64,000 nt of DNA from a virus. The stretch is from the IMG/VR virus record IMGVR_UViG_3300021085_002380; one strand, given 5' to 3'. Within the stretch, counting starts at the first letter, position 1; each line of letters starts with the position of its first letter. The notes beneath the pieces were generated by a model. The model was given only the letters and a program-made list of their open reading frames with translations. It did no database searches and was not told where the DNA came from. The translations under genes and the position numbers were made by a program. Of the stretch, positions 1-42,894 are shown in pieces.

Positions 1-2862
1 ATAGTAGGTTATAAAGAGTTCGACTCTACTAAATACATTGATATTGAACCTACTATTGATGAAGCTAAAAAGAATGGCGGAACTGTAGTTATTGCATGGG
101 GTCGTATGAATCCTATGTCTGCAGGTCACGAAATGCTCGTTAAGAAAGTTATTGATGTGGCTAAGACCGAAAAAGGTACTCCGCAAATTTACTTATCACA
201 TACCCAAGGAGCAAAAACTAAAACCGGCAAAGGGGCGGTTAATAAAGATCCATTATCATATGATGATAAAATCAAATTTGCTCAAAAAGCTTTTGGTCCA
301 ATTGTTAAGAAATCTCCAGCAAAAACTATCATACAATTACTTAAACTCCTTGATAAGCAGTTTGATAGAGTTGTATTGGTAGCTGGATCTGATAGAGTCA
401 AAGAGTTTAACAATACACTAAATAAGTACAATGGAAAAGAATATAAATTCAGTGAACTTAAAATCGTATCAGCTGGCCAAAGAGATGCGGATGCCGATGA
501 TGTATCAGGAATCTCAGGTACTAAAATGCGTGGATACGCTAAGACAGACATGAAAAAATTTACTGCAAACTTACCGAAAAAATTAAAAGGTGACGCCAAG
601 GAAATTGCAGCGTTAGTAAATAAGGGCACTCAAATGACAGAAGAAAACGATGTAGAAATGGATGAAGCTCTGAATAGAGTTCAACGATTTAAAAAGGCCC
701 GCGCTATGAGAAAGGCTCGTGCTAAAATCAAACGTGGCCAAGAACGCGCTAAGCGTAAAAAGGCTGATATGAAAAAGATTAAACAAAGAGCGCAAAAGTC
801 TGCAAGGAATATGATTAAAGATAGACTTGCAAAACCTAAAAAGTATGCAAGCTTATCATATGCCGAAAAAGAACGTATTGATAAACGTATGGAAAAAATT
901 CCACCAGCAAGGATTGATAGACTTGCCCGTAAAATGATACCGATGGTTAAAAAGAAAGAACAGGAAAGACTTAAGTCTGCGCGGTCAAAATCAGAAGAAG
1001 TTGATCTCGACGAACAGTTTACAATGTTCATGGAAAAAATGACAAAGCCACAAGATAGTGACGTGGCAGATCGCCCAGGTTCTCAACCAAAAGGTTATTA
1101 TAAAGGTGTAGATAAAGATAAGAAAGATGCTCGCGCTGCTCATTTTGAAAAAGGTGCAAAGATGTCTGACGATAACCCTGCGGCATACAAACCAGCTCCT
1201 GGTGATAAAGAAGCAAAGACTAAAGAGTCGAAGTTTACTAAAAAAGCAAGAGCTATGGGATTTACAGAAGATTTAGTTTGGGAAGAATTAGTTGAAGGTC
1301 TCGACGAAGGTTTGTGGGGACAGCGAATTTCAAAAAGACCGCATATGCTATATGCTGCAAACGGAAAAGTAAAATTTGATAAACGCTTTAAAATGTATAG
1401 ACCAAAAGATGTTAAAGAGTCAAACGAGTTTGTCATTGAAGACATTGCAGAACTATACGAAGCGACCGAAGGTTATATGTCTGAAGATAAAGCTGGAAAA
1501 TCTTTAAAAGATAAAGCAGCGAAATCAGGTATGCCTGCCGGTATTTTACGTAAGGTTTATAACCGTGGCGTGGCGGCATGGCGTACAGGTCACCGCCCAG
1601 GTACAACTCCTGAGCAATGGGGACATGCTCGAGTAAATTCATTTATTACAAAATCATCAGGTACATGGGGTAAGGCAGATAAAGACCTTGCTGATAAAGT
1701 TCGCAAAGAAGGAATAGAAGAAATGAATGAAGCACCTCGTCGTAAAGGCGCGCCAAAAATGAAAGGTGACTCTGTTGCAATTCAACGTGCAAAAGACGCA
1801 GAACATGCAAAGGCAATGGGGCGTTCAGTAAAAACTGGCCGCAAGTTACCTAAGAAAACAATGACTTCAACTCAAAGATCATTAGCTTCATTACGTGGAG
1901 AAGATGTTCAAGAAGCTGCTACTCCTCAAATGAAACAGGCCGCGGCAAGTATTGAAGCATATGCAAAAAAACATGGTGGTATTGATAAAGCAGACTTTAT
2001 GAAAGCAGCAAAGATGCTATCATCTGGTAATGCTGGTACAAAATTCATTAAGTTCGTAGACGATCTTGATACAGATCCACGTGAATGGTTAATTACTAAT
2101 CTTGCTAAAACTATGGGTAAACAAACAGTTGAAAAAATGTTTAAAGTTAAAATCCGTGAAGAAGTAGAACAGCTTGATGAATTAACCGCGGCAGAAAAGA
2201 AACTTGTTAATCAAATGTATGATAAGAAAGGTAACCTTACTCCATTAGGCAAAAAGGTTATGAACCACGGTAAAAAGCCTGGTGATAAAGGTTACGTAGA
2301 ATCAAATCTTGATGAGCAAGCTATAGAGTTTTTAGAAAAGTATAAACCAGCAACACCTGAAGAAATCAAAAAGGATAAAGAACGTGAGCGTAAAGCAAGC
2401 GGCAAACAACGTCCTTCAATGAACGCTAAATCTGCCACAAAGAAAACATATGGTGGTATGATGGGTGGTCTTAAAGCTGGTTACGGTTATGGAGAAAGCT
2501 CAAAAAAATCTGTTGATACTAAACCAACTATTGACGAAGATGAAAAAGAAAACCTAGCTAAATATGCAGCAGCGGCAATTGCGCGTAAAAAAGAAGCGGG
2601 TGAAATGGATGATAAGCCAAAACCAAAATATAAAGACAAAGTCAAACGCAAAGAGGTTGATGAAGCGTGTGGAGCTGGTGAGCAAGGTACTAATGAGCTT
2701 ACTAAAAAATACAAAAAAGATACACCAATGGAAAGTATTCCACCTGAAGTTGTAGGGGCAGCATTAGCCGCTCCTATGGTCGCCCAAGGAGCAAAGGCTG
2801 CAGCTAAAGGCGCGTATAAAATGGCTAAAAAAATTGTGGCAAAAAAGAAAGCTAAAAAGTGA
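1..2862 (+). CDS. Large modular protein: N-terminal HxGH nucleotidyltransferase (cytidylyltransferase-like) domain followed by many basic modules separated by acidic linkers; 5'-truncated by the window
   Basis: Frame is open from base 1 (IVGYKEF...VVIAWGRMNPMSAGH). GRxNPxxxGH and LVAGSDRV...SAGQRD...ISGTKMR motifs match the T4-like phage cytidylyltransferase family; many (L/I/V/M)-x-E sites lie between modules. Confidence 0.75.
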   Translation: MVGYKEFDSTKYIDIEPTIDEAKKNGGTVVIAWGRMNPMSAGHEMLVKKVIDVAKTEKGTPQIYLSHTQGAKTKTGKGAVNKDPLSYDDKIKFAQKAFGPIVKKSPAKTIIQLLKLLDKQFDRVVLVAGSDRVKEFNNTLNKYNGKEYKFSELKIVSAGQRDADADDVSGISGTKMRGYAKTDMKKFTANLPKKLKGDAKEIAALVNKGTQMTEENDVEMDEALNRVQRFKKARAMRKARAKIKRGQERAKRKKADMKKIKQRAQKSARNMIKDRLAKPKKYASLSYAEKERIDKRMEKIPPARIDRLARKMIPMVKKKEQERLKSARSKSEEVDLDEQFTMFMEKMTKPQDSDVADRPGSQPKGYYKGVDKDKKDARAAHFEKGAKMSDDNPAAYKPAPGDKEAKTKESKFTKKARAMGFTEDLVWEELVEGLDEGLWGQRISKRPHMLYAANGKVKFDKRFKMYRPKDVKESNEFVIEDIAELYEATEGYMSEDKAGKSLKDKAAKSGMPAGILRKVYNRGVAAWRTGHRPGTTPEQWGHARVNSFITKSSGTWGKADKDLADKVRKEGIEEMNEAPRRKGAPKMKGDSVAIQRAKDAEHAKAMGRSVKTGRKLPKKTMTSTQRSLASLRGEDVQEAATPQMKQAAASIEAYAKKHGGIDKADFMKAAKMLSSGNAGTKFIKFVDDLDTDPREWLITNLAKTMGKQTVEKMFKVKIREEVEQLDELTAAEKKLVNQMYDKKGNLTPLGKKVMNHGKKPGDKGYVESNLDEQAIEFLEKYKPATPEEIKKDKERERKASGKQRPSMNAKSATKKTYGGMMGGLKAGYGYGESSKKSVDTKPTIDEDEKENLAKYAAAAIARKKEAGEMDDKPKPKYKDKVKRKEVDEACGAGEQGTNELTKKYKKDTPMESIPPEVVGAALAAPMVAQGAKAAAKGAYKMAKKIVAKKKAKK

Positions 2863-3428
2863 TATCTTTTAAACAATATATTTCAGAAGACTTTTCGTCT
2901 GATTTAAATGAAAGCGCATTGACCGCACTTAGAGTTGCAACTAAAGCCCATTCAGGGCAAACTCGCAAAAGTGGTGGTAAATACATTGAGCATCCAAAAG
3001 AAGTTGCTCGGTTCGTAAAGCAATTTAAAAAGTCAAATAATCTTTCGGCGTTAGTACAGGCAGCTTATTTGCATGATACTATTGAAGATACTGATACAAC
3101 TTATGCTGATTTGGTTAAACAGTTTGGTGCTCTTGTAGCTGATATGGTTCAAGAATTAACAACAGATAAAGCTGCATCTGATGCTATTGGTAAAGGTGAA
3201 TACATTGCTGGTAAGATGGCTAAAATGTCAAGTTGGTCATTAGTTATTAAACTTGCGGATAGATTAGCAAACGTACAAGACATTGATACCCGGCCTGCAG
3301 ATTTTCAAAAGAAATATGCTGCACAGACTGCGCTTGCTATTAAACGTCTTCGTAGTGATAGATATTTGAGTAAAACACATAATAAGATTATATCGGCAAT
3401 TGAGAAAAAGATTAAAGAGTATGTATAG
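2859..3428 (+). CDS. RelA/SpoT-type HD hydrolase (Mesh1-like small alarmone hydrolase) with N-terminal capsid-targeting-like peptide
   Basis: AHSGQTRKSGGKYIEHP..VA, AAYLHDTIEDT, FGALVADMVQELT and KLADRLAN motifs; no synthetase domain; starts MISFKQYISE (GTG start). Confidence 0.85.
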   Translation: MISFKQYISEDFSSDLNESALTALRVATKAHSGQTRKSGGKYIEHPKEVARFVKQFKKSNNLSALVQAAYLHDTIEDTDTTYADLVKQFGALVADMVQELTTDKAASDAIGKGEYIAGKMAKMSSWSLVIKLADRLANVQDIDTRPADFQKKYAAQTALAIKRLRSDRYLSKTHNKIISAIEKKIKEYV

Positions 3429-3714
3429 TTTTAAACAATATATATCAGAAGGTCTTAAGATCAAACTCATTAGAGGTAAGACCGAAGACGTATTAAAGAT
3501 ACAAGATTCTAAGGAAAAGTCTTGGGTTGAAGTGCGTGGCAAATCTAACTTTGAAACTAAGTTTGACCCAAAAGATCCTTTACACAAAGCAATTGCATCT
3601 TTACGTAAATCGGTTAATGTATCTGAACTCGTGAATGGAGAGCCTGTAGGCATTAATCCAAACCACCCACACGGCAAAAAAGCCCTGGCAGCAATAAAGA
3701 AGTTAATGAAATGA
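3421..3714 (+). CDS. Putative internal head protein (CTS-like N-terminus)
   Basis: ATG at 3421 gives MYSFKQYISE, nearly identical in DNA to the start of the preceding gene. Confidence 0.6.
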   Translation: MYSFKQYISEGLKIKLIRGKTEDVLKIQDSKEKSWVEVRGKSNFETKFDPKDPLHKAIASLRKSVNVSELVNGEPVGINPNHPHGKKALAAIKKLMK

Positions 3715-4031
3715 AAAACTTTAAATCTTTTTTAGAATCAAAAGACGAATACGATAATGAAGGTAGTATGGCAAAAGGCCAATTAAAAACCATGATTGAT
3801 GCAGCGCAACAATTGCATGATATGTTATCTGATGACGAAAACATGCCAGAGTGGGTACAAAGTAAAATCACTAAAGCTACAGATTATATTGACACTGCAA
3901 GAGATTATATGAAGTCTCAAGACGGTGATGAAGCTAGCCAACAAGAAGCGTGTTGGGATACTCATAAGCAAGTTGGTATGAAAAAGAAGGGCAATAAGAT
4001 GGTCCCTAATTGCGTTCCAAAGGAAACATAA
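3711..4031 (+). CDS. Putative internal head protein (CTS-like N-terminus)
   Basis: Starts MKNFKSFLE; contains an EGSMAKGQL...PEWVQSKITKA module and a C-terminal ACWDTHKQVGMKKKGNKMVPNCVP module. Confidence 0.65.
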   Translation: MKNFKSFLESKDEYDNEGSMAKGQLKTMIDAAQQLHDMLSDDENMPEWVQSKITKATDYIDTARDYMKSQDGDEASQQEACWDTHKQVGMKKKGNKMVPNCVPKET

Positions 4032-4033
4032 CA

Positions 4034-4261
4034 ATGAAAAGTTTTAAACAGTTTTGCGAAGGTTCAGAAACATGGGAAGCTGGTTATAAGCGCCGTGTTG
4101 TCAAAACTACTAAACCTGAGCATAAAGACGACGGAAAAAATTGGAGAATTAAAGGTAAAGATAGACCTGAGATTTCAATTAAACTATATAAAGAAAAGCC
4201 ATCACAGGCAGAATTTAATAAACAAATGCGCAGAGTCGCAGGTCACGAGTTTGGAGGATAA
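4034..4261 (+). CDS. Putative internal head protein (CTS-like N-terminus)
   Basis: ATG at 4034 follows an AGGA RBS and gives MKSFKQFCE; basic protein. Confidence 0.6.
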   Translation: MKSFKQFCEGSETWEAGYKRRVVKTTKPEHKDDGKNWRIKGKDRPEISIKLYKEKPSQAEFNKQMRRVAGHEFGG

Positions 4262-4264
4262 CTG

Positions 4265-4522
4265 ATGAATAAGGGACCAAAGACAGAACAACATTTAGCA
4301 GTTATTGCCGAATGGATGAAATCTGAAAATCGAGAACAAGTTACAATACATAGCAGCAGAAAACATGGTGCTATTAAATGGTTAGAATATCATCTTGAAG
4401 ATTACAGATGGAAATTTCAAAAATGGACTGATTTTCATGAACATTCCATATATTTCCAAACAGCTCGAGATGCAGCATTATTTAGAACAAGATTTTTAGA
4501 TAGTAAGGAAGACAGAGTATGA
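4265..4522 (+). CDS. Hypothetical protein
   Basis: GGAGG RBS; tightly packed ORF. Confidence 0.6.
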   Translation: MNKGPKTEQHLAVIAEWMKSENREQVTIHSSRKHGAIKWLEYHLEDYRWKFQKWTDFHEHSIYFQTARDAALFRTRFLDSKEDRV

Positions 4523-5049
4523 AAACCTTTGCAAAGCATAACTTACACGAAGGTATTGCGTATCATTTAGAAAACGACATTCCGTTAGCAGAGTGTGTAT
4601 ATAGACCACACAGCAAATCGTTTTACGAATTTTTTATTGAAGCGCGTAAGTTATTCAAAGAAGGAATCATAAACCCATCTAATTATTTCGATAGAGACCT
4701 ATTAGAAACAGATATAGGTGAACACGATATTTACGAAGAACGGCGAGTTCCACTTGACATTCCCATGATGGAGGATGAAAAGGACGTTGAGCTCAACAAG
4801 CCACAAAGAGGTGGTCCCAAAAAGTTCTATGTGTATGTGAAAGATGGGGATAAAGTCAAAAAAGTAACCTTCGGGGATACGTCCGGTTTGGCCGTAAACT
4901 TTGATGATAAAGAGGCACGCAAGTCTTTCGCAGCTCGCCACCAATGTCATTTAAAAAACGATAAGACTAAAGCTGGGTATTGGTCTTGCCGTTTACCTCG
5001 ATATGCAAATGAATTAGGATTAAAAAATGGAGGTTCGTTCTTTTGGTAA
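4519..5049 (+). CDS. Putative internal head protein with conserved T4-like basic module
   Basis: Starts MKTFAKHNLHE; C-terminal KKFYVYVK..KVKKVTFGD...RKSFAARHQC...AGYWSCR module. Confidence 0.65.
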   Translation: MKTFAKHNLHEGIAYHLENDIPLAECVYRPHSKSFYEFFIEARKLFKEGIINPSNYFDRDLLETDIGEHDIYEERRVPLDIPMMEDEKDVELNKPQRGGPKKFYVYVKDGDKVKKVTFGDTSGLAVNFDDKEARKSFAARHQCHLKNDKTKAGYWSCRLPRYANELGLKNGGSFFW

Positions 5050-5318
5050 AACCATATTATGATGAACATTTGACAGATAACCAATGGATACGAATATTTA
5101 ACCCTTATAACACAACCGCTGATGATTATGTTTGGCATAGGGATAAAAACGATAGAGTATTTACAGTATTAGATGGCGATGGTTGGAAAATACAATTTGA
5201 TGATGAACTGCCTACTGTTATAAATAAACGTGATACGATAGAAATACCTAAAATGGTTTATCACAGGATAATACCTGGAAAAAGCAAATTAAGGATAATA
5301 ATAAATGAAGACGTTTAA
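5043..5318 (+). CDS. Small cupin-like protein
   Basis: WHRD...IEIPKMVYHRI cupin-type pattern. Confidence 0.55.
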   Translation: MVKPYYDEHLTDNQWIRIFNPYNTTADDYVWHRDKNDRVFTVLDGDGWKIQFDDELPTVINKRDTIEIPKMVYHRIIPGKSKLRIIINEDV

Positions 5319-5682
5319 ATCACATATGACTGAGCATGAAATGCAGCTTGCGCTCGTGTGGGAACACATGCATGAAGAAAATATCAACCCCGATGATTTA
5401 ACCGAAGAAGAGTTAAATGAAATCATTGGTAAGGTGATTGGTGGAGCAGCAAAGCTCGCAGCCAAAGGTATACGCCGAGGTCTTGTTAATAAACAAGGTA
5501 ATCTTAGAGTTTCTCGTGCTGGACGTAACGACGCAAGACAAGCAAAAATTGATAATATTGAAAGAAAGAAAAAAGAATTGAAACGAGCCACAGATACTCG
5601 TAAAAAGCTTCAGACTGCTAGAGCCGGTTTAAGAACTGCTCGCAAAGATTTTAGAAAAGCTAGACAACAAACTAACCCTTAA
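5305..5682 (+). CDS. Putative internal head protein (CTS-like N-terminus), basic helical C-terminus
   Basis: Starts MKTFKSHMTE; LNE/IIG junction followed by an Arg/Lys-rich tail. Confidence 0.6.
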   Translation: MKTFKSHMTEHEMQLALVWEHMHEENINPDDLTEEELNEIIGKVIGGAAKLAAKGIRRGLVNKQGNLRVSRAGRNDARQAKIDNIERKKKELKRATDTRKKLQTARAGLRTARKDFRKARQQTNP

Positions 5683-5703
5683 TTAATAATAGAGGAATAA
5701 AAA

Positions 5704-5913
5704 ATGGATTTTGCATCATCATTTAAATCAAAGATCTTAGAAACTTTAGAAGATCTCGAAGAAAAGAAAATGGATCCGGTTGGACAAGCCGACGATGATA
5801 TTGATAACGACGGAGACGTTGACGATTCAGACGAGTATCTTCACAAACGCCGCAAAGCTATCAAAAAGGCTATGAAAGAAGAACAAGAAGCTCGCTTATC
5901 AGAAGATAAATAA
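5704..5913 (+). CDS. Small protein with DxDNDGDVD (EF-hand-like) module
   Basis: GAGGA RBS; MDPVGQADDDIDNDGDVDDSDEYLHKRRKAI. Confidence 0.6.
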   Translation: MDFASSFKSKILETLEDLEEKKMDPVGQADDDIDNDGDVDDSDEYLHKRRKAIKKAMKEEQEARLSEDK

Positions 5914-5945
5914 ATCAAGAAACCCAAATAAGGAGATATAAAAAA

Positions 5946-6248
5946 ATGGCACTTTGGGGAAAAACAGATGCATTGGCTTCCGTACCAAAATGGTTGGAAG
6001 ATGCTGCGTCAAACACAAACAAATCAAACGATAGAGATAACGCAATCTTTGTTGACCTTACAGAGGCTGGAATTGCATCTAACCGTGCAAAAGGCATTAC
6101 TGGTCCAGGCTGGTGGTTATACCATACAGATGGCGGACGTCACCACGCTGAATGTCTAGTACCAATGAAAGTAACCGCGGTTGCTGCTGGTGACTTGGGT
6201 GTAACAGGCGACACCGCTGTTGAAGATGCTATCGTAGCTGACTCATAA
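5946..6248 (+). CDS. Putative virion structural protein (MALWG-type, marine T4-like phages)
   Basis: AGGAG RBS; MALWG N-terminus and IFVDxxEA...GITGPGWW motif. Confidence 0.5.
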   Translation: MALWGKTDALASVPKWLEDAASNTNKSNDRDNAIFVDLTEAGIASNRAKGITGPGWWLYHTDGGRHHAECLVPMKVTAVAAGDLGVTGDTAVEDAIVADS

Positions 6249-6266
6249 AAGTAAAGAAAATATAAT

Positions 6267-6641
6267 ATGAAATTGACAGAATCAACCTTTCTGTTATTTG
6301 CATCTAAATATTACGACAATCCTCAATGTTCCGACGTATCAGAATTTGAGGAAGACCTGAAAAGGTTTCAATATTTACGCAAATTATTTGGAAGATACAG
6401 ACAAGATAATGAATTAAAAGAAAGGTTGATTCTGAACCACTTGATAATTATCTATAATATGTTTGGGCCAGAAGCGACACATATGTTATTCATGAAACTT
6501 GAAGAATACCATGAATACATTAAGCCGTTTGTTGAATACTTAAACTATATGCCTATAGAAATAATGTATGAAGATCGTATAATAGGTAAAGAAAATATTA
6601 TAGCTGATCCAGTTATAGAAGAAAAACTTAAAGGAATATGA
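6267..6641 (+). CDS. Conserved T4-like hypothetical protein
   Basis: YDNPQC...EFEEDLKRFQYLRKLF...LKERLILNHLIIIYNMFG pattern. Confidence 0.65.
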   Translation: MKLTESTFLLFASKYYDNPQCSDVSEFEEDLKRFQYLRKLFGRYRQDNELKERLILNHLIIIYNMFGPEATHMLFMKLEEYHEYIKPFVEYLNYMPIEIMYEDRIIGKENIIADPVIEEKLKGI

Positions 6642-6645
6642 TCTT

Positions 6646-7575
6646 ATGATCGTTGATCTATTTTTAGTATACCAATTTATCCGCAGGCTCGCAACTCCTT
6701 TTAATAAATGGGAAGCGTTTAAGCTTGGTGTTATTGATAAAGACGGTAAAGTACTAATCAAATCAAAAGATTTTACTAAAGCTGCTCAGCGTAAATCATG
6801 GGGAGTTTTTGATAGAATGGTAGCCAACCTTAAAAAGTTGTTAGCTAAAGTTCCTGGCGGTAGTTCTCGATTTGCATCATACGCTGCTGCGTTATTTCTC
6901 ATTAAAGAATATAAACATTTTACTGATGAAACTACTCTTACAGAAGAATTAACTGATAAACAATTAGATGAATCAATACAATTATTTTATAGTAGATATA
7001 CTCATTATACCACACTTGCAGAAGATGTCAATAGTTTAAACGAAAAGGCTGAACTTTTTTTAGAAAAGCTAAAAGCATCTGATGATATGGGCGATTGGAT
7101 TGACGACTTTTACAAATCAGACGCACCACAGTTTAAAGGCAAGTCAAAAGAAAAACGCCGTAAAATGGCAATTGCTGCTAAGCTTGCAGTTGACGAGTCA
7201 TTAGAAGAAGCCGCTGTTCCACGTTGGAAACGAGCAGGTACTGATGGCGAAATAGAAGCTACTATCGGTGGTAAAAAATACAAAATAGAAAAAGCTTTAG
7301 ATAGTAACGAACGCCATAAAGGCGAATGGAAAGTTATGGTTTGGGATAAACGTGACTGGGAGTGGGAGACAACCGAATATGGCAAAGCAAACGCTAAAGC
7401 TTGGATCATGGATAGGTTAAAAGAAGATACACCGGTTAATAACGTTGGTGATGGAAATATTGCAGGAATGGATGGAACTGCAATGTCAAAAGCAGCTCAA
7501 AAGAAATGGACATCCAAGAATAAAACTAAAAAGCGTAAAACACTGAGAAATATTATTAATGGAGAAACCTTATGA
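6646..7575 (+). CDS. Conserved T4-like protein with appended protease-site-delimited modules
   Basis: N-terminal DLFLVYQFIRRLATPFNKWEAFKLGVIDKDG domain, then FLE/KLKASDDMGDWIDDF.., LEE/AAVPRW.. and LKE/DTPVNNVG modules. Confidence 0.6.
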   Translation: MIVDLFLVYQFIRRLATPFNKWEAFKLGVIDKDGKVLIKSKDFTKAAQRKSWGVFDRMVANLKKLLAKVPGGSSRFASYAAALFLIKEYKHFTDETTLTEELTDKQLDESIQLFYSRYTHYTTLAEDVNSLNEKAELFLEKLKASDDMGDWIDDFYKSDAPQFKGKSKEKRRKMAIAAKLAVDESLEEAAVPRWKRAGTDGEIEATIGGKKYKIEKALDSNERHKGEWKVMVWDKRDWEWETTEYGKANAKAWIMDRLKEDTPVNNVGDGNIAGMDGTAMSKAAQKKWTSKNKTKKRKTLRNIINGETL

Positions 7576-8429
7576 TTACATTAGAACAATTTAGCGCAAT
7601 GATCCCAAAAAATAAGGACGCTGAGTCTTGGTACGATGCCGCGGTTCCTATGTTTGAAAAATACGAAATTAATACAACAAACCGGTTAGCCGGTTTCATG
7701 GCTCAATGCGCGCATGAGTCTTTAGACTTTACAAGACTTGAAGAAAACCTTAACTATTCAGAAAAAGCGTTAAACGGAGTGTTTGGTCGTTATTTCGGAA
7801 AGGGTAAAAGAAATGCTAAAGAATACGCTCGCAAACCTGAAAAAATTGCAAACTATGTTTATCAAGATGAATACCGCAGCAAACGAGGCGCTATGGGCAA
7901 CACCACTGCCGGTGATGGGTGGAGATTTAGGGGCCGTGGCATTAAGCAACTTACAGGTAGAAACAATTATACAGCGTTTGGAAAGTCAGTCGGAATGTCA
8001 GCGGAAGAAGCAGCAGACTACGTTGCAACCGAACGAGGAGCTTTAGAGTCAGCCTGCTGGTTCTGGGCAACAAATAAACTTGACAAGTGGGCTGATAAAG
8101 GCGACATTAAAGGATTGACAAAAAAGATAAATGGTGGTACAATTGGTTTAGAAGATCGTACACGTCGTTGGGAAGAAGCATTAGCTATTCTTGGTGGTAA
8201 AGTACCCGCGCCAAAAGCAGCAAAGAAATCTGCACCAGCAAAATCTCGTACTTTACGCAAAGGTATGAAAGGTGACGATGTCGCTAAAATGCAAAAAGCT
8301 TTAGGTATTACAGCGGACGGAGACTTTGGTTTCGGAACGCAAACATCAGTTAAAAAATGGCAAAAACTTAACGGTTTAGTGGCAGACGGCATTGTAGGCC
8401 CAGCAACACAAGCCAAAATGTTTAAATAA
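7572..8429 (+). CDS. Endolysin: GH19 chitinase-like domain plus C-terminal peptidoglycan-binding domain
   Basis: FMAQCAHES, EENLNYS, GDGWRFRGRGIKQLTGRNNY and INGGTIGLEDR; PG_binding_1-like LRKGMKGDDV..ADGIVGPAT. Confidence 0.9.
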   Translation: MITLEQFSAMIPKNKDAESWYDAAVPMFEKYEINTTNRLAGFMAQCAHESLDFTRLEENLNYSEKALNGVFGRYFGKGKRNAKEYARKPEKIANYVYQDEYRSKRGAMGNTTAGDGWRFRGRGIKQLTGRNNYTAFGKSVGMSAEEAADYVATERGALESACWFWATNKLDKWADKGDIKGLTKKINGGTIGLEDRTRRWEEALAILGGKVPAPKAAKKSAPAKSRTLRKGMKGDDVAKMQKALGITADGDFGFGTQTSVKKWQKLNGLVADGIVGPATQAKMFK

Positions 8430-8435
8430 TAAATA
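8428..8435 (+). promoter_or_regulatory. T4-type late promoter variant (AATAAATA)
   Basis: One mismatch to TATAAATA, about 30 nt upstream of the 8466 ATG. Confidence 0.5.
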
Positions 8436-8465
8436 ATACACAGTTAACATAACAAGGAGAACAAC

Positions 8466-8690
8466 ATGTCTTTAGAAAAGATTGTCCAGGAAGCCGTCGA
8501 GGCACGTCCACTTGGTTTGAAAGAAGCGTTTGAAGCAGAAATGGAAAAACGTATTTTAGCAGCCCTCGAAGAAAAAGCAACAGCTAGCATGATGGAAGCA
8601 GCTGCTGATGAAGACGAGGACGAAGATGACGAAGATCAAGACGACGACGAAGATGACGAAGATGAAGATGAGGACAAAGAAGAGGACTAA
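8466..8690 (+). CDS. gp67: Prohead core protein, gp67-like
   Basis: 74 aa with a helical N-terminus and a long Asp/Glu tail, the architecture of T4 gp67; AGGAG RBS. Confidence 0.55.
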   Translation: MSLEKIVQEAVEARPLGLKEAFEAEMEKRILAALEEKATASMMEAAADEDEDEDDEDQDDDEDDEDEDEDKEED

Positions 8691-8692
8691 GA

Positions 8693-9142
8693 TTGGCTAG
8701 ACTCTATCTTATAATCATTATACTAAGTATTTTAGGTGGTGGTGGTTTCGCGGCAAAATCGTACTTTGATTGGTCGCAGGAAACTATCACCACTTTACGT
8801 ACTAATAATGTGAAACTTCAGGACGCTGCGGAAACTCTGCAAAACACTGTTGACCAAATGGTTGCGGATGCAGCACGAAACGAAGAATTGAATAATAACC
8901 TAACTAAGCAATTACAACAATCTCAAGCACATCTTGACAAATTGCGCGGCGTATTTGCTAGAATAGATTTGACTATGGAAGCGCTCACTGACGCGCAAAA
9001 TTTGGAGGAAAGGGTAAACAATGCAGTTGCAGAACTTATTGGAAAAATTGCCGATGAAACTGATCCTAATCCTAGTACCGCTGACGATGCTGACAGCGTG
9101 CCTGGGCAGGACGCCGGAACCGACGGTAGTAACGCAGACTGA
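8693..9142 (+). CDS. i-spanin (Rz-like)
   Basis: N-terminal TM segment then coiled coil; downstream of the endolysin and overlapped by a lipoprotein ORF. Confidence 0.7.
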   Translation: MARLYLIIIILSILGGGGFAAKSYFDWSQETITTLRTNNVKLQDAAETLQNTVDQMVADAARNEELNNNLTKQLQQSQAHLDKLRGVFARIDLTMEALTDAQNLEERVNNAVAELIGKIADETDPNPSTADDADSVPGQDAGTDGSNAD

Positions 9143-9398
9143 ATATGTAAGTCAAAATATTCCAACACAGGAACGGCCTAAAAAGGTGGAGATGCCACCA
9201 GTTGAATGGTACGTTGTGACTGAGGAAAATCTTGACCAAAAAATTGAAGAATTAAAAACATCAACTGGCAATGTTGTGTTCTTTGCTATTTCTGCAAAAG
9301 GATATGAAAATCTTGCAATTGGAATTGGCGATCTTAGACGATACATAAAAGAGCAAAACGCTATAATTGGCTACTATGAGGGTGCACTTTCTGAATAA
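9054..9398 (+). CDS. o-spanin (Rz1-like lipoprotein)
   Basis: Start at 9054 gives MKLILILVPLTMLTAC (lipobox LTAC); Pro-rich; overlaps the i-spanin 3' end. Confidence 0.7.
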   Translation: MKLILILVPLTMLTACLGRTPEPTVVTQTEYVSQNIPTQERPKKVEMPPVEWYVVTEENLDQKIEELKTSTGNVVFFAISAKGYENLAIGIGDLRRYIKEQNAIIGYYEGALSE

Positions 9399-9404
9399 AT
9401 AGTA

Positions 9405-9433
9405 TTGACATAATTAGTTATCAGTGATATATT
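9405..9433 (+). promoter_or_regulatory. sigma70-type promoter (no GANTC)
   Basis: TTGACA-N17-TATATT. Confidence 0.6.
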
Positions 9434-9434
9434 G

Positions 9435-9464
9435 AGGGGTACATAGTAATGATGCCCCTTTTTT
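9435..9464 (+). terminator. Rho-independent terminator after the lysis genes
   Basis: AGGGGTA...TGCCCCT stem followed by a T-run. Confidence 0.6.
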
Positions 9465-9528
9465 ACTCTTAATACCGGAGTTCGCCACCCAGCCTCCGTA
9501 ATCAAAAGGCATAAAAGGAAAAAAGAAA

Positions 9529-10029
9529 TTGGCAAATACAAAGTCAAATTGGGAAACAGATATCGCCCTAATTAAGTCAGATATCAAACAGATACAAAAA
9601 TTCTTCAACAAAGTTGAGGACTCAATGGACATGATGGTTGACTTGTCCAAAAACGTTGCTGTGCAAAATGAAGTCTTAGAGTTTACTAAAGAAAAGCTTG
9701 ACGACGTAGAAAAGCTATGCGAAGAAACAAAACGTACTGACGAATTACGTATGAATGTTTTAAGTGATAGACTTGAAGAATATAGAAGATCTTCTAGGGC
9801 TGACCACGAAAAGCTAGCTAATCACAATGCCGAAAAGCGAGCTACGAGTAATAAAGAAGTACTTGAAAAGTTAGAAGCGGTAGAACAATCATTACATATG
9901 AGACTGAATGAACAGACTAAAAAAGTAAACGTACTTGAAAATTGGCGTTGGTATTTTATGGGCATGGGCCTAGTGTTAGCAATAGTTGTTGCGGAAATTA
10001 ATTGGCCTACATTATTTGGTGGAAATTAA
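9529..10029 (+). CDS. Coiled-coil protein with C-terminal TM helix; holin/lysis-associated candidate
   Basis: Long coiled coil then LENWRWYFMGMGLVLAIVVA; lies next to the spanins. Confidence 0.45.
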   Translation: MANTKSNWETDIALIKSDIKQIQKFFNKVEDSMDMMVDLSKNVAVQNEVLEFTKEKLDDVEKLCEETKRTDELRMNVLSDRLEEYRRSSRADHEKLANHNAEKRATSNKEVLEKLEAVEQSLHMRLNEQTKKVNVLENWRWYFMGMGLVLAIVVAEINWPTLFGGN

Positions 10030-10048
10030 TTGGACTACATTATTTGGT
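9993..10048 (+). repeat. 28-bp tandem duplication (1 mismatch)
   Basis: ggaaattaattggcctacattatttggt followed by ggaaattaattggactacattatttggt. Confidence 0.9.
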
Positions 10049-30469: not shown

Positions 30470-30643
30470 ATGGCTAAAAGTTTTAAAGAGTTCCGCGAAG
30501 ATTGGGAACACGACGAATGGGGTCACAACGAAGAACGGAGCGTACGCAGTAAGGAAAAGCGTATGAAAAACCGTCGTGATAAAAAGAAACTGAAACGGCA
30601 AGAAAGAAATTCCCATCTTGATACTGAAGAACAAAAAAGGTAA
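30470..30643 (+). CDS. Small basic protein with CTS-like start (57 aa, not in ORF track)
   Basis: AGGA RBS; MAKSFKEFREDW...KRMKNRRDKKKLKR. Confidence 0.55.
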   Translation: MAKSFKEFREDWEHDEWGHNEERSVRSKEKRMKNRRDKKKLKRQERNSHLDTEEQKR

Positions 30644-38616: not shown

Positions 38617-39924
38617 TTAGAACAAGTTAGATACAGTCACACGACGGTAGTAAACGTTAGAGTCTACAGTCAATGCGCCGTTTCCTTGTGAAGCACCAGC
38701 TGAGAACGGGTTAGAGACCATGCCGTAGCGAGTCTTAAATCCGATTTTTGGCTGGAAGCTGTTTTCACCAACTGCGCGAACCATCTGCAATGGTACGTAT
38801 GGGCAATAGAAGATACCAGCATCAAAAGATGAAGAACCTTTATAACCTACAACCATGTAGTTAGCTCCGGCATATGGATCGATGTATACTCTGTAACGAC
38901 CGTTCAGAACACCGGCGAATGTATTGCCTGTATCGTCTACGTCGAGGGCGTTGCTGTTCAACGCTGGAGTATAATCAAGAACACCTGCCATTTGCAATGC
39001 GGATGCAACATCGGAGGAACAGATAACCATGTTACCTTTACCACGACGTGTACCTTTTGCAATTGCGTTTGCTTCTTGTTCGATTTGGAACATCAGGCCT
39101 TTGAATTTCTCAACTGACCAACGACCATTTGCATCAACGTCCAGATCAAAAGTACCTGGTGTTGCTGTACCGGCTGCGCCGAGTACCGCGTTTGTGTAAA
39201 TGGTACGAACCAATTCGCGGTTGATTTCAACCAAGATTTCTGATTGCAGAATGTTTGCCAATTCTGTTTCAGCATCCAAACCGTGTACGGCTTTAAGATC
39301 CTGAGCAAGCTCAGCAGTGTATTCGGCTTTCAGCTGACGAGATTTCGCTGTTACGGAAACTTTCTCGATTGAGAATGCCATCTCAGCAAAGTTAGCATCT
39401 GATTCAGCATCGGCTGTTGCCATGCCTGTACCAGTTGTAGTAACTGTTGAGTTAGCAGAACCCAATGCTTGTGCATGAGTACCTGTACCAGAGAAGTCTG
39501 TATCGGCTTCGTTATAGAATACTTCGTTAGCCGCAGCTTGCGTAGTATGTGTTGAACGCATTGCGAAGATCAAGCCTGTTGGGCCAGTCATCGGCTGAAC
39601 ACCAGCGATGTCATATGCGATCAAGTTTGGCATTGCACGACGTACCAATGAAATTAGGATTGGGTCGTAACCTGCAGTTGGACCGGTTGCAGTTGAGTCT
39701 GCGCCGAAGCCACCTGTGCCTGCGTCGTTTACATGAGTTGCTTCAGACAAAAGCGATGTCATGTTTGCACTAAGATCACCTTCAGATACTAGAGCTTTTT
39801 GAGTATTCTCTAGAACAGTTGCAGTGACCGATTTACGGTGCTGATCTTTAATGTTTGTAAAAGAGTCGTGCTCCAGAACTGGGCCCCACTTTTCTACAAG
39901 CGCTTGATAGTTTGACTGAGTCAT
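38617..39924 (-). CDS. gp23: Major capsid protein
   Basis: LISLVRRAMPNLIAYDIAGVQPMTGPTGLIFAMR, KAEYT.ELAQDLKAVHGLDAE and FQPKIGFKTRYG. Confidence 0.98.
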   Translation of the reverse strand: MTQSNYQALVEKWGPVLEHDSFTNIKDQHRKSVTATVLENTQKALVSEGDLSANMTSLLSEATHVNDAGTGGFGADSTATGPTAGYDPILISLVRRAMPNLIAYDIAGVQPMTGPTGLIFAMRSTHTTQAAANEVFYNEADTDFSGTGTHAQALGSANSTVTTTGTGMATADAESDANFAEMAFSIEKVSVTAKSRQLKAEYTAELAQDLKAVHGLDAETELANILQSEILVEINRELVRTIYTNAVLGAAGTATPGTFDLDVDANGRWSVEKFKGLMFQIEQEANAIAKGTRRGKGNMVICSSDVASALQMAGVLDYTPALNSNALDVDDTGNTFAGVLNGRYRVYIDPYAGANYMVVGYKGSSSFDAGIFYCPYVPLQMVRAVGENSFQPKIGFKTRYGMVSNPFSAGASQGNGALTVDSNVYYRRVTVSNLF

Positions 39925-39989: not shown

Positions 39990-40970
39990 TTATTTCTTCG
40001 CAAAAGCTGCGAGAAGAGCATTGATTGACGGATCTTCAGAAGCTGGTTTAGCAACAACTGTTTCCTCAGTCAAGATTTCTTCTTCGTCGTCTTGAGCTTC
40101 CTCTGCAACAACCGGTTTGGTATCTGCAAAGAATGATTCTTTAAGAGTATTTAGATTAGCTGTATACTCATCAACGTTTTCGAAGTCAAGCTTTTCGGAA
40201 AGTACTTTCAGACGCTCGGCTTGAGTCAGCGTAAGTCCTTCAGTCATTTCGTTAAAAACTTTCTCTGCCTTAAGGCCCGAGATTTCTTTTGCAAGCGCGA
40301 GATTTTCATCGATGCGTTTGTTTGCGTCGTCGGTCATTACTTCAACTTTCTCTTCAAGTCCTGCAACCACATCAACAACTTCGTCGTCTACTGTAATGTT
40401 GTGCTCAGTGAAAAGATCCTTAAGGCCGTCCATTAACGATTCTGCCATATCAACCTTGATACCGGATTCGATGGCAAGTTCGTTTTCTTTCATCCACTCT
40501 TCTACAACGTAGTCGAGATATGAATCAAGATTCTCAATAATAGTGCTTACAGTTGAGTCGACTGATTCTTGCATTTCTGCGTCAACTTTAGCTGCATATT
40601 CTTCTGTCATAGCTTCAGCTTTTTTCGTGGCCGATTCATTAACAGCTGCTTCAAAAACTAGAGTAACTTTATTTGTGAACTCTTCAGAAAGGTCCATGCC
40701 TTCAAACATTTTTGCAATTGATTCGTCGATAGAAATTACTTCTTCTTCAACGATTTCAACAGCATCAGCATCGGCCGCTTCTTCTTCGTTCATTCCTGGT
40801 GTTGGTGTGTCAAGTTTGCCAGCTTTTGGATCAGCCGCCTTTTTGACATCTGCTTTTTTCTTTTTAGTTGCGCCGCCGGCTGGTGCTGCTGGATCTTCTA
40901 CTGAAGATGCAGGAACAGTCGAACCGCCGTCGTCAACAGTGAACTTTTCGTCTAGGTCATGTTCTGACAT
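39990..40970 (-). CDS. gp22: Prohead core scaffold protein
   Basis: LSEEF..K...FEAAV and LDSYLDYVVEEWMKENELAIESG; canonical position. Confidence 0.93.
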   Translation of the reverse strand: MSEHDLDEKFTVDDGGSTVPASSVEDPAAPAGGATKKKKADVKKAADPKAGKLDTPTPGMNEEEAADADAVEIVEEEVISIDESIAKMFEGMDLSEEFTNKVTLVFEAAVNESATKKAEAMTEEYAAKVDAEMQESVDSTVSTIIENLDSYLDYVVEEWMKENELAIESGIKVDMAESLMDGLKDLFTEHNITVDDEVVDVVAGLEEKVEVMTDDANKRIDENLALAKEISGLKAEKVFNEMTEGLTLTQAERLKVLSEKLDFENVDEYTANLNTLKESFFADTKPVVAEEAQDDEEEILTEETVVAKPASEDPSINALLAAFAKK

Positions 40971-41027: not shown

Positions 41028-41726
41028 TTATTTTCTCAGCGATGATAGGAACTTTTCAAACATTCTACCTGCCAAATTTTCATCAATTTGACGAACAGTA
41101 CGTTTATAAGCTACCTTTACTTCTTTTTGGATTTCTTCAATTACTTCTTCAACCTCGGCTTGAGCTGCTGCTGGCAACCAAGAATTAGAAGCAATATCAT
41201 AGTAGTATTCGACGTTTTCCATTACGCCGTTTACAAAACAATTAGGACCAGAAGGATCTGTTACAATATCAACAGTCGACAAATGGAAATCGTTTTGTAC
41301 TTCCATGATGCCTTCTTTAGTTGGTTTAACAGAACCAAGGCCGCGTGTCGAAACTCCAAAAAGCACGCCTTCGTCCATAAATGTTTTAACAATCTCACCC
41401 ATTGGCGTACTAAGAATTTTAGCTTTACCAATAAAGTTTGATCCGTCTCTTTTCATTTCGGTGATAAGGTGTGATACTCTATCTCCGTTAATGGTTGGTC
41501 CTTCAGGATGTCCTAATTCGCCTAGAGCACGTTTCGTATCAATAAAATCTTTCTGATAACGAACCATTTCTTTTTCAAGAACTGCAGAAGGATATATTCT
41601 ACCATTACGATTTTTAAGGTCGCCTTGCATAAAAATGCCTTCAATGAAGTGTGACTTTTTACCAGTCTCTTCATTGATTTCTGTGGTTAAACTAACCTCT
41701 TCTACTACTTCAGTAATCAGTTTCAT
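41028..41726 (-). CDS. gp21: Prohead protease
   Basis: IEGIFMQ...NRNGRIYP, ALGELGHP, GVSTRGLGS and DIVTDPS. Confidence 0.96.
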   Translation of the reverse strand: MKLITEVVEEVSLTTEINEETGKKSHFIEGIFMQGDLKNRNGRIYPSAVLEKEMVRYQKDFIDTKRALGELGHPEGPTINGDRVSHLITEMKRDGSNFIGKAKILSTPMGEIVKTFMDEGVLFGVSTRGLGSVKPTKEGIMEVQNDFHLSTVDIVTDPSGPNCFVNGVMENVEYYYDIASNSWLPAAAQAEVEEVIEEIQKEVKVAYKRTVRQIDENLAGRMFEKFLSSLRK

Positions 41727-41751: not shown

Positions 41752-41759
41752 TATTTATA
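41752..41759 (-). promoter_or_regulatory. Late promoter for gp21
   Basis: TATAAATA on the - strand. Confidence 0.75.
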
Positions 41760-41767
41760 ACTTTATA

Positions 41768-42013
41768 CTAAGGTATACCATTAGCATTTTTATTGTCATA
41801 AAAGTTTTTATTCAATTCGCCTCGTATAATTGTTTCGCCTGCTTTCCTACATTTGATATACGTATATTGCGCATTACCACCTGGAGGAGTGTAGGCACGA
41901 ACGCCTGCTGTGACGGTCCCGTTAGCATCATTATATGTGTCGGAGTCCGCAGCCGTGGCAGCATTATCATACTCCCAAATACTATTTGAGCCTAGGACCG
42001 TCACAAAAGCCAT
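41768..42013 (-). CDS. Hypothetical virion-associated protein
   Basis: TAATG overlap with the upstream gene; within the head operon. Confidence 0.55.
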   Translation of the reverse strand: MAFVTVLGSNSIWEYDNAATAADSDTYNDANGTVTAGVRAYTPPGGNAQYTYIKCRKAGETIIRGELNKNFYDNKNANGIP

Positions 42014-42894
42014 TACATGGCTTCCCTCGCAAATCCAACGATTTCGTTAAATCCGCTTTTATCTGTCATCATAACTTTTTCCATTTGTTTACGGTTTTGA
42101 CTATTCAATCCTTTAAACATTTGGTTCAAAAGTTTTGCATCTTCTTTTGTAACCTTCATTGAAGATCCATCTTTTAATTTCATATTGCCTACTTTAACTG
42201 CTTCGTCAATATGTTCTTTCTTTTCCCAAGGAGCTTTTTTCAACGATACGGCTTCTTTACCTTTTTTCGTTGTTGCGGCAGTCTTGGCTAATTTTTTCAT
42301 TAGATCGGCTTTTTTGTTTTCAGCCATCTTTTCTTGACCGTGGTCATCAACTTTAACGTCTTTTGCTCTTTTCAATACAGTACGAACTTTACCGTCCGGT
42401 CCTGTAATGTTCATAGGCTTTTTTATTGCTGACTGAGTAACCTCGTTAACGGATTCTTTCCTGTGAGCATCTTTATATAAACCTACGGCTTGAGCAATAT
42501 TTTTATTTTTCATCATGCGCTTTGATTCGCCGGCATCTGGATTATCCATTATCATACGAACTGTAGGCTCATCTACGTTATTCTTTTTGACAAATTTCTT
42601 ATATGCATCAAACTTTTTAGGAATAACAGATCCACCAAATTTATTTCTCATTGGTGTCATACTACGAGAAATCTCATCAATTTGCTCTGAATTTTCTGTA
42701 GTATATGCTTTGTCGTAATTAGCGTCGCCTTCTTGGTCAGCTTTACGTTTTGCCTTTGGCTTCTCAGCTTTATGCTGAGTTGGCTCTGCTACTGGATGAG
42801 GTTTAACCTCAGCATTGTGCAGATCTTTGAACTTCTTTTCCTCTGAGGATTTTGGTTCTGCTACTTCAGCCATATGATTTTTAAAGGACTTCAT
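42013..42894 (-). CDS. Putative prohead core/internal protein with CTS-like start, in the gp67/gp68 position
   Basis: Starts MKSFKNHMAE; internal IDE/I, VNE/V, MAE/N and IDE/A junctions; AATAAATA at 42926-42933. Confidence 0.65.
   Translation of the reverse strand: MKSFKNHMAEVAEPKSSEEKKFKDLHNAEVKPHPVAEPTQHKAEKPKAKRKADQEGDANYDKAYTTENSEQIDEISRSMTPMRNKFGGSVIPKKFDAYKKFVKKNNVDEPTVRMIMDNPDAGESKRMMKNKNIAQAVGLYKDAHRKESVNEVTQSAIKKPMNITGPDGKVRTVLKRAKDVKVDDHGQEKMAENKKADLMKKLAKTAATTKKGKEAVSLKKAPWEKKEHIDEAVKVGNMKLKDGSSMKVTKEDAKLLNQMFKGLNSQNRKQMEKVMMTDKSGFNEIVGFAREAM

Follow-up and report, generated by a model that had tools for sequence, protein, structure and literature searches.

Why should a phage gene for a small alarmone hydrolase (SAH) begin with what resembles the leader by which T4 sends proteins into its own head? 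The question is raised by an open reading frame (ORF) at positions 2859-3428 on the plus strand of IMG/VR record IMGVR_UViG_3300021085_002380, a stretch of viral DNA of 64,000 nucleotides that is called here the window. The window is T4-like myophage DNA with 38% G+C, in which Pfam also recognised tail tube, sheath and terminase genes, and the source phage is a marine T4-like phage. Phages of nutrient-poor seas mostly meet starved and slow-growing hosts, whose transcription, translation and nucleotide supply are held down by (p)ppGpp. From sequence, structural model and analogy with T4, we lean slightly towards a reading in which the SAH precursor would be loaded into the head by its leader, cut there by a gp21-type protease and injected to remove alarmones.

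The product of the ORF, which has 189 codons and a GTG start, is a complete single-domain SAH fold with an intact active site, as judged from its sequence and from the model described below. Pfam matched HD_4 (PF13328; 6.3e-16, 58.9 bits, cut-off 27.2) and HD (PF01966; 1.1e-5, 26.1 bits, cut-off 22) and no synthetase or other domain, and PHROG 990, annotated as a metal-dependent phosphohydrolase, matched at 3e-30. The protein carries the motifs AHSGQTRK (H31, Q34, R36), YIEHP (H45), LHDTIEDT (H72, D73, E76, D77) and KLADRLAN (D134, N138). In a phmmer search of the PDB the top match was human MESH1 (3nr1, 2.3e-15), and the hydrolase domains of Rel and SpoT as well as bacterial SAHs were also found; R36, H45, H72-D73, E76-D77, D134 and N138 align with their MESH1 and Rel counterparts. 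The hydrolase set of Rel, SpoT and Mesh1 consists of metal-binding His, His-Asp and Asp residues and of catalytic Glu-Asp, Arg and Asn residues. All ten motif residues named above are invariant in alignment A1, which holds 57 relatives. An AlphaFold2 model built on A1 had a mean predicted local distance difference test score (pLDDT) of 90 with a helical fold spanning residues 18-188, and Foldseek placed MESH1 and the Pseudomonas aeruginosa SAH first (probability 1.00, template modelling score 0.75-0.83). The predicted mature domain, residues 19-189 (2913-3425, plus strand), contains the HD_4 match at residues 23-157 and would have 171 amino acids, 19.0 kDa and a pI of 9.7. By every sequence and fold character considered, the protein belongs to the SAH family, and the first-pass annotation, which had described a complete SpoT/Mesh1-type HD domain without a synthetase, is borne out by the Pfam result, the MESH1 match and the presence of the motifs that it quoted. 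We also considered that the SAH might be the antitoxin of a neighbouring toxic small alarmone synthetase (toxSAS). This candidate was rejected because a Pfam scan of the upstream ORF and of six other ORFs, which lie downstream of the SAH gene (3400-7572), found no RelA_SpoT synthetase.

The N-terminus of the protein reads M(V)ISFKQYISE|DFSSDLNE|SAL. The leader M(V)ISFKQYISE (residues 1-10; 2859-2888, plus strand) resembles the T4 ip leaders and would be a CTS-like tag ending in I-S-E (CTS, capsid targeting sequence). The linker DFSSDLNE (residues 11-18; 2889-2912, plus strand) ends in a second putative site, L-N-E|S, whose position is conserved in viral relatives, with DLNE|S at residues 15-19. 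In the T4 genome (NC_000866), ipII and ipIII start with MKTYQEFIAE, and ipI starts with MKTFKEF and continues to TITE|A. The T4 CTS directs packaging, even of foreign proteins, and is removed by gp21 (PMC10229621, PMC5694885). In the AlphaFold2 model of the SAH, residues 1-17 are of low confidence and lie apart from the fold: a short helix of low pLDDT at residues 4-11 is detached from the domain and residues 12-14 fall below a pLDDT of 50. The HD fold begins at residue 18, and a cut after Glu18 would therefore free exactly the folded domain.

M1 and F4 of the leader are at least 90% conserved in A1. The leader codons differ among relatives, F4 being TTT or TTC and Ser3 AGY or TCN, and K5, the aromatic residue at position 7 and E10 vary in the same way; this synonymous variation points to selection on the peptide. 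The same alternative codons led us to reject the idea that the leader is conserved as DNA or RNA rather than as a peptide. A start codon downstream of the leader was likewise considered and rejected, because the sole in-frame alternative before the domain is TTG codon 21, which lies within conserved helix 1, and because an ATG stands exactly at the head of the leader in 34 of the 35 unique relatives, with a GTG start in the remaining one. Both the CTS-like peptide and the second LNE/S site that the first-pass annotation had placed before the domain were thus found, and the true start downstream of the peptide, by which that annotation could have been refuted, appears unlikely. On its sequence characters, all of which agree, the SAH is a probable member of the class of CTS cargo proteins.

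If the leader is a phage feature, cellular relatives of the SAH should be without it, as the first-pass annotation had proposed to check. Among 5.8 billion proteins searched there were 701 relatives of the SAH, and at least 542 IMG/VR contigs encode one. Nearly all full-length metagenomic relatives, down to about 50% identity, have the pattern M-x-[ST]-F-[KS]-x-[YHF]-x-x-E together with (L/I)xE right before helix 1, and more than 100 metagenomic relatives retain the leader. Seventy-eight viral loci were read, among which a script scored 47 as short tagged forms; 16 have long N-terminal extensions and five further loci, the L001 group, start with MPKSFKKYIAE. At exactly the three residues that precede the H of AHxGQ by 15 to 13 positions, just before helix 1, [LIVMF]xE stood in 37 of 45 unique viral relatives against none of 62 unique cellular ones, so that the expected difference was indeed observed. 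The cellular relatives have at most 49% identity and are mostly long Rel/SpoT proteins. In two phages that are not T4-like, Vibrio phage pv27 and Burkholderia phage BcepSauron, the SAH begins directly at helix 1. A relative with 55% identity (L004, 2781-3909) lies on a 182-kb contig with a heme oxygenase and a ferredoxin-dependent bilin reductase near gp32, UvsX and gp41, and by this gene content the tagged SAH occurs in cyanophage-like T4 relatives too.

The resemblance of a ten-residue peptide to a pattern could arise by chance, and the leader match exceeds chance in the following sequence comparison. The sole input to a position-specific scoring matrix (PSSM) was the N-terminal sequence of each of 87 metagenomic relatives of the SAH. 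When the window was scored with it in all six frames, at about 128,000 positions, the start of the SAH ranked first and the next ranks were other genuine gene starts, at 42894 on the minus strand (the second best), 5305 and 30470, and also at 3711 and 3421. Of the 1516 gene starts in the window together with 84 viral loci, 158 scored at least 10; internal Met positions did so in 6 of 6461 cases. Among the high-scoring starts, 115 belong to non-HD genes encoding 72-766 amino acids. The second-best match (42013-42894, minus strand) is a 293-residue protein with the leader MKSFKNHMAE and no Pfam match, encoded between portal and protease, which by gene order is the gp67/gp68 position.

Other carriers of the leader in the window are small genes (3421-5682 and 30470-30643, both on the plus strand), a cassette with the leaders MYSFKQYISE, MKNFKSFLE, MKSFKQFCE, MKTFAKHNLHE and MKTFKSHMTE and, farther away, MAKSFKEFRE. 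The content of the cassette varies among the relatives L001, L013 and L085. The DNA of the SAH leader (2867-2889) and that of the next gene, which starts with MYSFKQYISE (3429-3451), are identical at 22 of 23 bases, and such near-identical neighbouring leaders recall the recombination-prone leaders of the T-even ip loci. Within the cassette, the C-terminal motif KQVGMKKKGNKMVPNCVP of ORF 3711-4031 (3964-4009) is 96% identical over 46 nt to DNA of the cyanophages S-IOM18 and S-8S29. A motif resembling KQVGMKKKGNKMVPNCVP stands directly upstream of the SAH domain in a fused relative (L035, about 9970-10040).

A tag of this type would need a protease and a scaffold, and the window encodes the corresponding T4-type machinery on its minus strand. 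A gp21-type prohead protease, presumably the processing enzyme, is encoded at 41028-41726 (Pfam Peptidase_S77, 4.5e-35), a gp22-type scaffolding core protein, to which the tag presumably docks, at 39990-40970 (T4_CASP, 2.4e-66), and a gp23-type major capsid protein with the putative propeptide site LLSE|A at 38617-39924 (Gp23, 1e-142); a gp20 portal is also encoded. T4 gp23 has FLTE65|A66 and T4 gp24 has an N-terminal LLRE|S, both of which we take to be T4 cleavage sites. MAFFT aligned L-S-E61|A62 of the window capsid protein with L-T-E65|A66 of T4 gp23, which is consistent with a protease whose (L/I)xE specificity is the same. The S77 protease is encoded in all four near-complete relative genomes with a tagged or fused SAH, and the sole untagged relative (L084) belongs to a genome without it. 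The protease was unmatched in four of five further contigs, which are fragments 29-41% complete, so that those negatives are uninformative. On the contig of L079 (G011:C1:32998-33423), the S77 match contains two in-frame TGA codons, and a recoded genome or a broken gene is possible there.

The SAH gene directly follows an ORF of at least 953 amino acids whose 5' end lies outside the window (1-2862, plus strand). It encodes a cytidylyltransferase/NMNAT-like N-terminal domain (PHROG 3041, cytidyltransferase, 6e-84), a Lys-rich middle and a DUF5824 domain (1.8e-15). The N-terminal domain is the one annotated as 'cytitidyltransferase' in 460 cyanophage records of the collection. Proteins of NMNAT/cytidylyltransferase type, to which we liken it by type, were found through mass spectrometry in several cyanomyovirus virions (PMC10665884, PMC9602691). 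An (I/L/M)-x-E|A is conserved in the large NMNAT-like and DUF5824 protein about 30 residues from its N-terminus, just before the nucleotidyltransferase fold, in the window (1-2862) and in L001 (3805-6660), L085 (7424-9712) and L004 (16800-18836). This sequence suggests that the large protein, too, may lose a propeptide to the head protease.

The GTG of the SAH overlaps the TGA of this upstream ORF (AAG-TGA / GTG-A), and the junction at 2841-2862 reads GCA AAA AAG AAA GCT AAA AAG TGA, where a ribosome slipping by -1 ahead of the stop would join both proteins. Most of the SAH might then arise as the C-terminal portion of the upstream protein, through a -1 slip on AAA AAG just before the TGA, and be released by the protease at ISE and LNE, with the GTG unused. 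In the junction GCT AAA AAG TGA the SAH frame does run from the last G of AAG, with an A AAA AAG run 15 nt upstream; a GTG start is rare (one of 35 unique relatives), and a natural in-frame fusion of both proteins exists (L035). The junction is nevertheless unconserved, the ATG of L001 being in another relative frame and an extra gene lying in between in L085, and GTGA overlaps are usual where genes are translationally coupled. No stimulatory structure was seen, none having been looked for. We regard expression by frameshifting as very improbable and return to the SAH as a separately started, leader-bearing protein.

Natural fusions were seen in several forms. In L016 and L030 the leader is followed by about 100-130 amino acids, then by LNE|SAL and the SAH domain. 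In L035 a cytidylyltransferase-like domain, DUF5824 and DLDE|SAL precede the SAH, so that the two adjacent genes of the window are joined. Other proteins headed by a nucleotidyltransferase are fused to the SAH in L064, L069, L074 and L077, the protein of L069 (9416-11830) also having an ART-PolyVal-like ADP-ribosyltransferase region; L049 (2338-5613) joins a DUF6267 protein, with a KWDG motif in its N-terminal region, to the SAH, and L073 (48-11423) is a giant ORF of more than 3790 amino acids with a SAH domain. An xE site stands at the joint in the fusions of leader, cytidylyltransferase/DUF5824, DUF6267 and ART-PolyVal type, whether the SAH domain is C-terminal or internal. This is as expected of a module freed by the head protease, and it ties the fusions to the theme of 'polyvalent proteins' (Iyer et al. 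2017, PMC5512222). Defined by at least two effector domains, polyvalent proteins include those of L035, L049, L064, L069 and L074, and the single-domain SAH of the window is not one of them. The likeness lies in the use of the SAH domain in other phages as a module beside nucleotidyltransferase, DUF5824, DUF6267 or ART-PolyVal domains, in proteins that are plausibly packaged and processed. The difference is that the available part of the survey describes a RelA/SpoT synthetase domain, not an HD hydrolase.

Taken step by step, the reading that we favour is as follows. The SAH would be made late, in a co-oriented gene string that is headed in relatives by a T4-type late promoter. Its ten-residue leader, MISFKQYISE, would act as a T4 CTS and take the precursor into the prohead scaffolding core, where the gp21-type protease would cut after Glu10 (I-S-E) and/or Glu18 (L-N-E). 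The basic 19-kDa catalytic domain would stay among the packaged DNA, be ejected with it at the next infection and be active before phage gene expression. As a Mn-dependent HD pyrophosphohydrolase of Mesh1/SpoT type, it would remove 3'-pyrophosphorylated nucleotides, (p)ppGpp and/or (p)ppApp, and the tRNA 3'-pyrophosphate made by toxic alarmone synthetases may be a further substrate. The phage would benefit by bringing a starved host out of its stringent state or by blunting alarmone-based abortive infection. By an order-of-magnitude reasoning of our own, tens to hundreds of copies of the enzyme are plausibly enough for quick clearance of the alarmones in a very small marine cell.

The closest model for such a protein is T4 itself. 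Its internal proteins Ip1-3 have the leader alone in common and are injected, and those Ip proteins that have been characterised are stoichiometric inhibitors of the GmrSD type IV restriction enzymes (PMC12373910). Like IPI, IPII, IPIII and Alt, the window SAH has a leader of ten residues with the same pattern and an (L/I)xE end, in a genome where protease, scaffold, gp23 and gp20 are present. The leader is also borne by unrelated small genes in a cassette, and the predicted mature SAH is small and basic, as in the T4 internal proteins. The mature SAH, at 19 kDa, would be about the size of T4 IPIII*. Alt is an ADP-ribosyltransferase and offers a precedent for an injected enzyme. It is described as injected in the polyvalent-protein survey (PMC5512222). 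Unlike the T4 internal proteins, the window SAH has a second cleavage-type site after a spacer of eight residues, and its packaging is predicted. With these likenesses taken together, the SAH is probably injected with the phage DNA.

The timing of expression bears on a different role for the same protein. In the window, the T4-type late promoter box TATAAATA occurs ahead of the genes for capsid, scaffold, protease and sheath, and the copy belonging to the protease gene lies at 41752-41759. In the relatives L001 and L085 the SAH-containing gene string begins with the large ORF, and a TATAAATA stands just upstream of it. No strong sigma-70-like promoter was found just upstream of the SAH gene, and the promoter and terminator counts in 1-9600 did not exceed those of shuffled sequence. 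Lying within a late operon in relatives, the SAH might be an unpackaged protein with a late cytoplasmic role in the producing cell, where it would hold (p)ppGpp low while synthesis drains amino acids and nucleotides. The leader would then serve the translation efficiency of the late message, stability, localisation or a protease-regulated activation. The authors of the cyanophage virion proteomes warn, moreover, that highly expressed proteins may co-purify with virions (PMC10665884), which also leaves room for this role. It does not account well for a leader that equals the T4 packaging leader in length, pattern and terminal xE, that is under protein-level selection, that occurs in phage relatives only, and that is found in near-complete genomes which, where checked, encode the S77 protease. 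A further objection is that the same leader is borne by many unrelated proteins and by the one encoded next to the protease at the core position, and the xE-jointed fusions to large proteins fit release by the protease within the head. We therefore consider an exclusively cytoplasmic role unlikely, although worth keeping in view, and prefer packaging and injection.

Several points weigh against packaging and injection with alarmones as the target. Packaging, cleavage and activity of the SAH and of its close relatives are all deduced from sequence, which for packaging in particular favours the cytoplasmic role, and late suppression of alarmones is known to benefit T7 (PMC13483052). No TATAAATA occurs within 1-5218 of the window, the operon start lying beyond its 5' edge, and we infer late expression of the window SAH from L001 and L085. 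At the first putative site, ISE|D, the P1' residue is Asp, as against Ala or Ser in the T4 sites compared. The collection of isolated phages contains no SAH relative with more than 46% identity. Lastly, the sequence of the SAH does not discriminate nucleotide substrates: Mesh1 takes NADPH too, and a Mesh1-PAPS complex, PDB 9chy, is among the structural relatives.

These last observations also bear on what an injected SAH would act upon. It could be packaged and injected and have a target other than (p)ppGpp, such as the tRNA 3'-pyrophosphate of CapRel/FaRel2-type toxins, (p)ppApp, NADPH or PAPS-type cofactors, or it could have a basic DNA-binding role. Among solved structures, the nearest to it are those of Mesh1, bound to NADPH and PAPS, and of the promiscuous P. 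aeruginosa SAH, and phage SAHs neutralise both tRNA-modifying and ppApp-making toxSAS (PMC7229694, PMC11559606). The frequent fusion or adjacency to an NMNAT-like nucleotidyltransferase hints at NAD(P) metabolism, and a pI of 9.7 for the mature protein would suit DNA binding. All residues of Rel, SpoT and Mesh1 for 3'-pyrophosphate hydrolysis are invariant, however, which makes a purely structural role unlikely; for the rest, this alternative differs from the preferred reading in the target alone, a point on which the sequence does not discriminate. A target other than (p)ppGpp seems to us distinctly unlikely, a shade more so than the cytoplasmic role, and we retain alarmone removal by an injected enzyme as the best explanation.

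Mesh1 and the P. aeruginosa SAH (3nr1, 5vxa, 6yvc) give the window protein its best sequence and fold matches and have the same catalytic residues. The window protein differs from them in having about 28% identity over the structural alignment, and those proteins are cellular and without a leader; the NADPH phosphatase role of Mesh1 may or may not apply to it. Phage-encoded SAHs are already known (PMC7229694, PMC7824862, PMC12846349), and stand-alone ones neutralise every toxSAS tested (PMC7229694). PbcSpo of Salmonella phage PVP-SE1, PaSpo of SSU5 and the HD-alarmone PDEase of jumbo phages also have a single HD domain of RelA/SpoT-homologue type and a proposed function in countering alarmone defence (PMC7229694, PMC7824862). 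No packaging leader is reported for the stand-alone phage SAHs, which are assumed to be made after infection, and the clade of the window is at most about 46% identical to any isolate SAH. The window capsid protein is nearest to those of the Sinorhizobium phages phiN3 and phiM12 (67-68%), followed by Methylophilales phage Melnitz and Pelagibacter phage HTVC008M. A megablast search of window positions 1-8000 against isolated phages gave only a 46-nt match, in cyanophages. The nearest record to the window (G001) is a 23-kb fragment in which the SAH gene is represented by its last 25 residues only.

Full-text literature searches turned up no paper in which an alarmone hydrolase is CTS cargo, an injected protein or a module of a packaged polyprotein. 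Our literature search likewise found no use of the CTS outside T-even and jumbo phages and no nucleotide-messenger hydrolase reported as internal head cargo. SAHs and the CTS are each already known, and what is new, as seen in the sequence, is the combination of a phage SAH with a T4-type leader. The stringent response restricts some phages (PMC13483052), and an earlier candidate for starting infection in starved hosts, the cyanophage MazG, does not hydrolyse magic-spot nucleotides (PMC6850273).

The finding would extend the T4 CTS, characterised so far in T-even coliphages, to marine T4-like phages, and it would widen the cargo of the CTS from restriction inhibitors to a nucleotide-messenger hydrolase. 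More broadly, a phage-only SAH clade of more than 540 contigs may be pre-loaded in the heads of several marine T4-like lineages, cyanophage-like ones included, either by a leader or as a protease-released fusion module, and would be injected so that, ahead of phage transcription and in a matter of seconds to minutes, the host's stringent response or its toxSAS defence is wiped out; we offer this wider claim tentatively, holding it to be nearly as probable as its opposite. The mechanism proposed for the window SAH predicts that processed SAH is present in virions and that alarmones fall without phage gene expression. If true, a ready-made hydrolase would act when the phage can express nothing and would pre-empt abortive infection of the toxSAS/CapRel type. 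Among injected enzymes it would be the first to break down a nucleotide second messenger, and the role that was once suggested for the cyanophage MazG and later refuted would have a real counterpart in it.

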